Source of the DNA: a virus
Taxonomy: Duplodnaviria; Heunggongvirae; Uroviricota; Caudoviricetes
DNA length: 11,141 nucleotides
IMG/VR virus record: IMGVR_UViG_2529293240_000017
Direction: 5' to 3' (one strand)
Part shown: piece by piece, positions 5,768 to 5,909 of the stretch
Position numbering within the stretch: position 1 is the first letter of the stretch
How the letters are laid out: each line of letters opens with the position of its first letter
Notes under the pieces: generated by a model
What the model was told of the DNA's origin: nothing
What the model saw: only the letters and a program-made list of their open reading frames with translations
Databases searched by the model: none
Translations under genes and position numbers: made by a program

Positions 5768-5796
5768 GCAATAAAAAACCCGCTCAGCGGCGGGTT
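5768..5796 (-). terminator. tR'-like intrinsic terminator downstream of the late promoter
   Basis: 7-bp stem AACCCGC/GCGGGTT (5777-5783 / 5790-5796) followed on the minus strand by UUUUUAUU. Confidence 0.7.
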
Positions 5797-5837
5797 GTAG
5801 AAACTCTTCTAACGTCAGGCATAAAACGCCCATCATT

Positions 5838-5875
5838 ATGACGAATTTACCACAGATTCCGGAAAAATCAACCTT
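5838..5875 (-). promoter_or_regulatory. pR'-like late promoter with candidate qut / pause element
   Basis: On the minus strand: -35 TTGATT (plus 5866-5871), 16-bp spacer, TG-extended -10 TAAATT (plus 5844-5849). A second -10-like hexamer CATAAT lies just downstream in the early transcribed region. Confidence 0.5.
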
Positions 5876-5909
5876 GTTACCTAGTTACCTTTTTTAACTG
5901 CCGCTCAGC

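Follow-up and report, generated by a model that had tools for sequence, protein, structure and literature searches.

A probable lambda-type late control cassette beside a truncated Qλ-family antiterminator gene in a decaying prophage

Late control regions of lambda, phi80, P22, and Shiga toxin phages

In phage lambda, the late control sequence reads TTGACT-17-TAAATT-TGACTC-AACGAT-GGG. The Q-binding element (QBE) lies between the -35 and -10 hexamers, and a terminator (tR', 6S RNA) stands before the late genes at ∼+194. The hexamer AACGAT, at +1 to +6, is a sigma70-dependent pause element; the GGG at +7 to +9 is discriminator-like, and the pause is at +16 (PMC4005639, PMC5001585). In phage 82, the pause is at +25 (PMC5001585). 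Residues 195 to 207 of Qλ refold onto the flap-tip helix of RNA polymerase, and substitutions at L202 and T206 abolish antitermination but not QBE binding (PMC9388147). Regions of the same kind are annotated in the records of phi80 (JX871397; gene 17 encodes Q), with a -35, a Q site, a -10, and a terminator, and of P22 (BK000583; gene 23), with P late, qut, +1, and t late. Short transcripts from pR' are functional small RNAs (sRNAs) in Stx phages, for example, StxS (PMC7547250), and in Gifsy-1 the isrK gene, directly downstream of antQ, gives the functional sRNA IsrK (PMC4825925).

We analyzed an 11,141-nt stretch of phage DNA (the window) in which a Q gene is followed on its 3' side by a set of late control elements, all on the minus strand. 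The features of this locus are the following:

5910-6698, minus strand: Q antiterminator gene, Qλ family, truncated allele of 262 aa (Pfam and phmmer)
∼6157-6360, minus strand: Cys-rich insertion of ∼69 aa relative to Qλ (Q residues ∼114-182), with two extra CXXC motifs
5910-5912, minus strand: premature stop TGA, W263* (TGG>TGA); TGG in all relatives examined
5877-5909, minus strand: the part of native Q left orphaned beyond the premature stop, encoding AERQLKKVTR and ending in the native TAA stop (5879-5877), from comparison with relatives
5866-5871, minus strand: -35 hexamer TTGATT of pR', 4/6 consensus matches (sequence and relatives)
5857-5865, minus strand: putative QBE, TTTCCGGAA, directly 3' of the -35 hexamer (subfamily consensus TTTC-c-N-GAA)
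5844-5852, minus strand: extended -10, made of TG (5852-5851), one base, and TAAATT (5849-5844), the same hexamer as in lambda and P22 pR'
5835-5840, minus strand: CATAAT, the second -10-like hexamer of the sequence-only reading, at -3 to +3 and overlapping the start site
5837, minus strand: predicted transcription start (+1), an A, placed from the P22 record and lambda (PMC4005639)
5829-5837, minus strand: predicted sigma70-dependent pause element AATGAT (+1 to +6) with the discriminator-like triplet GGG (+7 to +9), from lambda comparison and conservation
5820-5822, minus strand: predicted pause position, ∼+16/+17 (A16, U17, G18; G at +8), from lambda and the elemental pause sequence
5768-5796, minus strand: intrinsic terminator tR', a 7-bp stem (5 G-C pairs), a 6-nt loop, and a U-tract (sequence and fold)
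5743-5771, minus strand: promoter-like TTGCGA-17-TATTAT, 9/12 matches, in the gap that separates the tR' U-tract from the first tRNA; it adjoins the cassette and is not part of it (promoter scan)
5733-5658, minus strand: tRNA with a CAT anticodon (tRNA-Ile in the annotation of relatives), the first downstream gene
5556-5480, minus strand: tRNA-Arg(TCT), the second downstream gene

The likeness to lambda begins with the protein, which belongs to the same Pfam family (PF03589), and extends to the DNA, where the -10 hexamer TAAATT, the 6-nt gap to the pause hexamer, and the GGG at +7 to +9 are all shared; the pause hexamers are AACGAT in lambda and AATGAT in the window. A conserved block occupies the place of the lambda QBE between -35 and -10, and a terminator precedes the late genes. 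There are also differences. The window Q is only 31% identical to Qλ and carries the ∼69-aa insertion with its two extra CXXC motifs, the spacer is 16 nt rather than 17 nt and has an extended -10 TG, and its block reads TTTCCGGAA where lambda has TATTGAATA. The terminator lies at +42 to +68 in the window and at ∼+194 in lambda, and only 5 nt separate the native Q stop from the -35 hexamer, compared to 44 nt in lambda. Finally, the TTGACT -35-like element just upstream of the lambda pause hexamer is absent from the window, so that the repositioning of sigma region 4 may differ.

Phi80 is the closest named phage with a record that annotates both a Q-binding site and a late promoter, and its annotated elements fall at positions corresponding to those in the window. 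Its Q protein shares with the window Q the Cys-rich insertion and 40% identity from end to end (269 aa versus 273 aa for the native form of the window Q), its Q site directly follows the -35 hexamer (TCGCGGA versus TTCCGGA in the window), AACGCT-GGG stands 7 nt after the -10, and the terminator is at ∼+44 to +69. It differs in its hexamers (TTGCAT and TAGATT), its 17-nt spacer, and the core sequence of the QBE. The P22 elements likewise correspond in position. That region is compact: AACGAT, whose first A is +1, comes 7 nt after TAAATT, and the terminator stem starts at ∼+28. A terminator within ∼70 nt is thus normal for the family. In contrast to the window Q, gp23 of P22 is a short, 207-aa lambda-like Q, with a lambda-like spacer upstream of the -10.

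The StxS and IsrK loci share with the window the arrangement in which a short constitutive transcript from a promoter directly 3' of the Q gene is ended at tR', and in Stx phages tRNA genes with their own mapped promoter follow the late promoter. However, the predicted window RNA has no significant similarity in sequence or structure to either RNA (isrK, 16.5 versus 50 bits), and StxS is processed from a 258-nt transcript.

Conservation of the cassette among relatives

Relatives of the window Q were collected by tblastn against a phage collection and by IMG/VR scans seeded with Klebsiella and Erwinia Q proteins. A genome-contig scan with a single Q protein gave only 2 loci, and the diversity was drawn from the phage collection and IMG/VR. 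The family of Q and the presence, position, and conservation of every DNA element were established from sequence. Of the 111 distinct regions that follow related Q genes, 101 showed the same order of elements (-35, 16 to 17 nt, -10, 4 to 7 nt, and AAC(G/A)(A/G/C)T); in the window it reads TTGATT-16-TGgTAAATT-CGTCAT-AATGAT-GGG on the minus strand. We defined a composite module as a promoter with at least 4 + 4 hexamer matches, a -10-like hexamer 3 to 8 nt farther on, and a terminator 20 to 90 nt farther on. The two strands of the window together contain one such module, at 5871, compared to 0.02 per dinucleotide shuffle (2 of 100 shuffles), and the pattern TAAATT-N6-AAYGATGGG matches once versus 0.06 expected. 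The sequence-only reading had packed a promoter, a pause-like element, and tR' into 5768-5909, and all three are found there, on the minus strand. The Q stop that it used as a landmark is a premature TGA, not the native stop.

The remaining ten relatives, all from IMG/VR (L179, L181, L187, L192, L194, L196, L206, L214, L220, and L221), have no pR'-like module within 260 nt and carry a strong terminator directly after the Q stop. Either their late promoter is located elsewhere or their Q has another role.

Each pR' hexamer of the window matches the consensus at 4/6 positions (8/12 in total), and a TGn extended -10 is present. A promoter scan with a threshold of 9/12 did not list pR'; we identified it from comparison with relatives, since that threshold misses a promoter of 8/12. 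The elements named in the sequence-only reading (TTGATT, a 16-nt spacer, and TG-TAAATT) are therefore correct, and its description of the promoter as near-consensus is too generous. The 16-nt spacer is TTTCCGGAATCTGTGG.

The block that directly follows the -35 hexamer reads TTTCCCGAA, TTTCAGGAA, or TTTCCGGAA in 92 of the 101 modules. In 10 representatives with promoters <85% identical, TTTC..GAA is invariant and the rest of the spacer is variable. The Q proteins encoded next to this block are ∼47 to 99% identical to the window Q and belong to phages of Escherichia, Klebsiella, Cronobacter, and Erwinia. The block after the -35 differs in other Q subfamilies, for example, T(A/T)TTGAATA in lambda and P22 and TTCGCGGAA in phi80. 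On the basis of this conservation and of the phi80 record, in which the annotated Q site takes the position equivalent to TTTCCGGAA, the block fits a Q-binding element in the position known from lambda and phi80.

Two overlapping hexamers are candidates for the pause element. The sequence-only reading had pointed to CATAAT, a second -10-like hexamer in the initial transcribed region. The hexamer exists, at 5840-5835, and with a start at A5837 it spans -3 to +3 rather than lying within the transcript. Among 85 near-identical copies, 47 have CATAAC in this register and 32 have CATAAT; the last position is T in 33 and C or A in 52. In the lambda register, 3 nt farther on, A+2 and T+6 are kept in 85/85 copies and so is the GGG, with hexamers at +1 to +6 distributed as AACGAT (41), AATGAT (24), AATAAT (8), AACAAT (6), AACTAT (3), AAAGAT (2), and GATGAT (1). 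Representatives <80% identical (n = 20) gave the same picture: A+2 and T+6 in 20/20, A+1 and C+3 in 19/20, and G+8 in 18/20. Compared to the family consensus, the window has A for C at -2 and T for C at +3, at two conserved positions. These data indicate that CATAAT is incidental, produced by a C>T polymorphism at +3 where the family already had A at -2, because its final T is lost in 52/85 copies whereas A2, T6, and the GGG of the lambda register are always kept. As judged by conservation, the pause element is AATGAT-GGG, the equivalent of lambda AACGAT, and the earlier assignment was 3 nt out of register. As a stronger -10-like sequence in the window allele, CATAAT might still compete for or shift sigma engagement.

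A second short motif, (C/T)GTT(G/A), occurs at ∼+20 to +27 in nearly all diverged leaders (L084 to L097) and at 5811-5814 (minus strand) in the window. It appears as CTCGTTG in lambda, CTCGTTA in P22, and GACGTTA in the window. Q-modified lambda complexes arrest at +24 to +28, near this motif.

The hairpin of tR', AACCCGC-CGCTGA-GCGGGTT at 5796-5777, is followed by TTTTATT, which makes it a canonical terminator. Its stem spans +42 to +61 and the U-tract runs to ∼+68, consistent with the strong intrinsic terminator ∼70 nt downstream that had been proposed, and the predicted terminated RNA is ∼65 to 68 nt. By a strict perfect-stem test, a terminator is present at the same place in 71 of the 101 relatives (median stem, +42 to +67). 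Judged across these loci, a terminator at ∼+40 to +70 is the family norm, and lambda tR' at ∼+194 is the outlier.

Folding of the leader gave -19.6 kcal/mol (z = -1.6, insignificant), which supports no structure beyond the terminator. An Rfam search over the leader found no family at threshold. The isrK model (RF01394) aligned at full length over 5841-5773 with a nonsignificant score of 16.5 bits (gathering threshold, 50; E, 0.11 to 0.17) and was not found in 12 related loci. We rejected this match, Trp_leader (26.7 versus 41 bits), and P9 as homologies, as the generic terminator hairpin drives the scores. An sRNA role for the window leader RNA is possible and unsupported.

The Q protein, its nonsense allele, and the surrounding prophage

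The open reading frame at 6698-5910 matches PF03589 at 174 bits (E, 6e-52), and no match to PF06530 (Q21 family) or PF06323 (Q82 family) was found in the Pfam search, which returned PF03589 alone of these families. A weak Pfam match to DnaJ_CXXCXGXG was also obtained. By phmmer, the protein matches the Qλ chains of Protein Data Bank entries 7ubm, 4mo1, and 7ubj with E values of 5e-38 to 3e-18; the best, 7ubm_Q (5e-38), aligns over Qλ residues 1 to 113 and 117 to 195. Identity end to end is 31% to Qλ and 40% to phi80 Q, which also has the ∼69-aa Cys-rich insertion. The two CXXC motifs added by this insertion, CPCCYGEK and CPECGGKG, together with the two shared with Qλ make four DnaJ-like CXXCXGXG motifs (CXXC(X)G). 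From this pattern, the base of the DNA-binding (zinc-ribbon) arm probably holds a second zinc site, formed by the extra pair. Our search of the literature on quuQ found no functional study of the 273-aa Q subfamily; this Qλ subfamily, with its extra pair of zinc motifs, is common and apparently uncharacterized. With its four-motif, DnaJ-like zinc arm, this subfamily may recognize TTTC-NN-GAA with a geometry unlike that of the Qλ monomer.

The codon at 5912-5910, TGA in the window, is TGG in 83 of 83 related loci, and their stop is the TAA that matches 5879-5877, 5 nt from the -35 hexamer. The native Q of relatives is 273 aa long and ends in ...EEAWAERQLKKVTR. Phage mEp460_ev081 and ∼1,200 complete E. 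coli genomes also carry the DNA of the cassette. The TGA allele had no exact match in IMG/VR or in metagenome contigs, and among 1193 complete E. coli genomes with the Q/cassette segment, no copy was 100% identical to that of the window. By these comparisons, the stop at 5912-5910 is a private nonsense mutation.

W263* removes the last 11 residues of Q, which align with Qλ residues 197 to 207, and leaves the protein incomplete in the C-terminal segment that corresponds to Qλ residues 195 to 207. Within the family, Leu at -6 (the counterpart of Qλ L202) is found in 46/46 unique tails and Thr at -2 (the counterpart of Qλ T206) in 45/46. Because the lost tail holds these counterparts of residues required in Qλ, the 262-aa window Q is probably defective in antitermination; by analogy with the Qλ substitutions, its binding to the QBE should be preserved. 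Termination at UGA is leaky, and read-through by near-cognate Trp-tRNA would restore wild-type Q. Some Q activity may therefore remain, as the window allele may yield traces of the full-length protein.

The prophage around the cassette is decaying and of the E. coli/Shigella type. In intact relatives, the order of genes is hokD, rem, DUF968, rusA, Q, the cassette, tRNA-Ile, tRNA-Arg, and DUF3927, then iraM (on the opposite strand), holin, lysozyme, and lysis protein. In the window, the W263* allele is accompanied by a second nonsense mutation, a premature stop in RusA (E119* of 124 aa, GAA>TAA, at 6713-6715, minus strand, compared to the copy in E. coli 1EC213). An IS600 end (TGAGGTGTACTGGCAATAG...) at 3295-3314 (minus strand) cuts off the class II holin after residue 61, and nested IS600 and IS3-family copies (window positions 1-3300) take the place of lysozyme and Rz, both of which are absent. 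The IS600/IS3-family load and the lack of an exact match in complete E. coli genomes suggest a Shigella-like host. Two inverted 1254-nt IS3-family copies, at 1181-2434 and 9888-11141, are 100% identical, contain ORFs of 121 aa and 301 aa, and bracket the prophage remnant.

Downstream of tR', both hexamers of the promoter-like TTGCGA/TATTAT site are conserved in the tRNA module of an Stx2a phage, and in Stx phages a transcription start has been mapped between tR' and the tRNAs (PMC7547250; Sy et al. 2020). Given this conserved site and the start mapped in a comparable place, expression of the tRNAs probably does not depend on Q. A mosaic joint lies at ∼5773 (minus strand): similarity to phiP27 and Stx2 phages (88 to 92%) begins right after the tR' U-tract and spans the tRNA promoter and the tRNAs, and the Q/pR' region upstream is unrelated in those phages.

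Other features were observed farther into the late region. An Rfam STnc100 sRNA (132 bits; E, 1e-29) lies at 4594-4783 (minus strand), inside the late transcription unit, with a terminator at 4624-4603, and STnc100 is also found downstream of Q in Klebsiella phage Kpn_R1. A 111-aa ORF at 4233-4568 (plus strand), 98% identical to a protein annotated in E. coli as the anti-adapter IraM, runs antisense to the late operon and forms a moron that separates the tRNAs from the holin. The best promoter-like match of the window, TTGACA-16-AACAAT (10/12) at 5391-5418 (plus strand), points into the antisense strand of tRNA-Arg and may be a chance match.

The proposed late switch and its alternatives

We consider it likely, with a probability of about 85%, that this locus is the late regulatory cassette of a lambdoid prophage with a Qλ-family antiterminator, whose switch is probably disabled in this copy. 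The lambda-type pR'/qut/tR' logic that had been recognized from the letters of the window is borne out by the PF03589 Q, the base-for-base match of -10, pause element, and GGG, the annotations of P22 and phi80, and the element order shared by 101 of the 111 relatives. By analogy we infer where transcription starts and pauses, that Q binds TTTCCGGAA, and that read-through follows. Sigma70 RNA polymerase would start constitutively at pR' (start, ∼5837); sigma region 2 would then rebind the -10-like AATGAT-GGG (+1 to +9), and the polymerase would pause at ∼+16/+17. Without Q, transcription would terminate at the hairpin and U-tract at 5796-5770 and release an RNA of ∼65 nt. With Q bound to TTTCCGGAA (5865-5857) and loaded onto the paused complex, the polymerase would become terminator resistant and pass tR' into the tRNAs, accessory genes, and lysis cassette.

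One alternative is that the unit is kept mainly as an sRNA gene, its ∼65-nt pR'-tR' RNA acting in trans in the manner of StxS or IsrK, with antitermination secondary or lost. The functional short pR' transcripts of Stx phages (PMC7547250) and Gifsy-1 (PMC4825925) lend this idea some appeal, as do cis elements left intact beside a broken Q, RusA, and holin and a weak, full-length isrK match exactly over 5841-5773. However, that nonsignificant match (16.5 versus 50 bits; E, ∼0.1) owes its score to the terminator, nothing in Rfam reaches threshold, the leader fold is insignificant, and the conserved positions are DNA signals (promoter, QBE block, and pause element) rather than the body of the leader. 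Intactness of the cis elements may simply reflect recent decay, and we regard an sRNA gene as unlikely. Still somewhat less plausible, in our opinion, is a role for CATAAT (5840-5835) as the site of sigma70 re-engagement or as a second, overlapping -10, with start and pause shifted by ∼3 nt relative to lambda. It resembles TATAAT more closely than AATGAT does (5/6 versus 4/6) and occurs in 32/85 near-identical copies. Yet its final T is C or A in 52/85, the hexamer is missing from every diverged relative, and it is the +1 to +6 register that keeps A2 and T6 everywhere, followed by GGG. Moreover, it lacks a usable -35 if taken as a -10 (the hexamer at 18 nt is TTCCGG), and at -3 to +3 it would precede the release of sigma from the promoter -10.

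Could there be no late switch at all, with the hairpin serving as terminator of the early (Q) operon and the hexamers arising by chance or serving the tRNAs? The weak hexamers (8/12, absent from the promoter scan) and the second promoter-like site directly upstream of the tRNAs are compatible with this. We find it very improbable, since a promoter separated from its genes by a terminator would be pointless unless there were antitermination, shuffled sequences contain the composite pattern 0.02 times each on average, and the key bases are invariant across relatives whose Q proteins are only ∼28 to 60% identical. Least credible, with hardly any weight in our assessment, is a cassette of the Q21 or Q82 type, with the QBE downstream of the start and a pause at +18 or +25. 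Both families are functional analogues that also lie upstream of late genes, but Pfam gives PF03589 alone rather than PF06530 or PF06323, and the -10-like element occupies +1 to +6, the lambda position, instead of ∼+10 to +15.

The lambda-type cassette is thus the reading we prefer. Its cis module is a member of the family, and the trans factor of this copy is probably defective. The switch is probably disabled here because Q lacks its conserved 11-residue tail and because the late operon is cut by IS600 in the holin gene. The sequence-only reading had Q-modified polymerase running into the tRNAs, cargo, and lysis genes; by analogy the read-through logic would hold for the family, and its last step, into the lysis genes, has probably been lost in this copy. 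The constitutive short pR'-tR' transcript and tRNA expression from the separate promoter are probably still active, and the cassette is otherwise probably vestigial in this genome. It strikes us as doubtful that the cis cassette has survived decay because its product matters, either as a trans-acting sRNA or through truncated or trace Q that would exert throttled or dominant-negative control of late genes or tRNAs.

The locus has little significance beyond annotation: it is a textbook Q-dependent late switch, an ordinary system of a known kind. It is useful in three respects. For the 273-aa Qλ subfamily, there is now a corrected map, backed by conservation, of the promoter, the likely Q site, the pause element, and the terminator. 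The comparison shows that lambda, with its terminator at +194, departs from the family norm of ∼+40 to +70. Finally, the nonsense allele of Q, without residues that are essential in Qλ, means that this copy should be annotated as part of a defective prophage.
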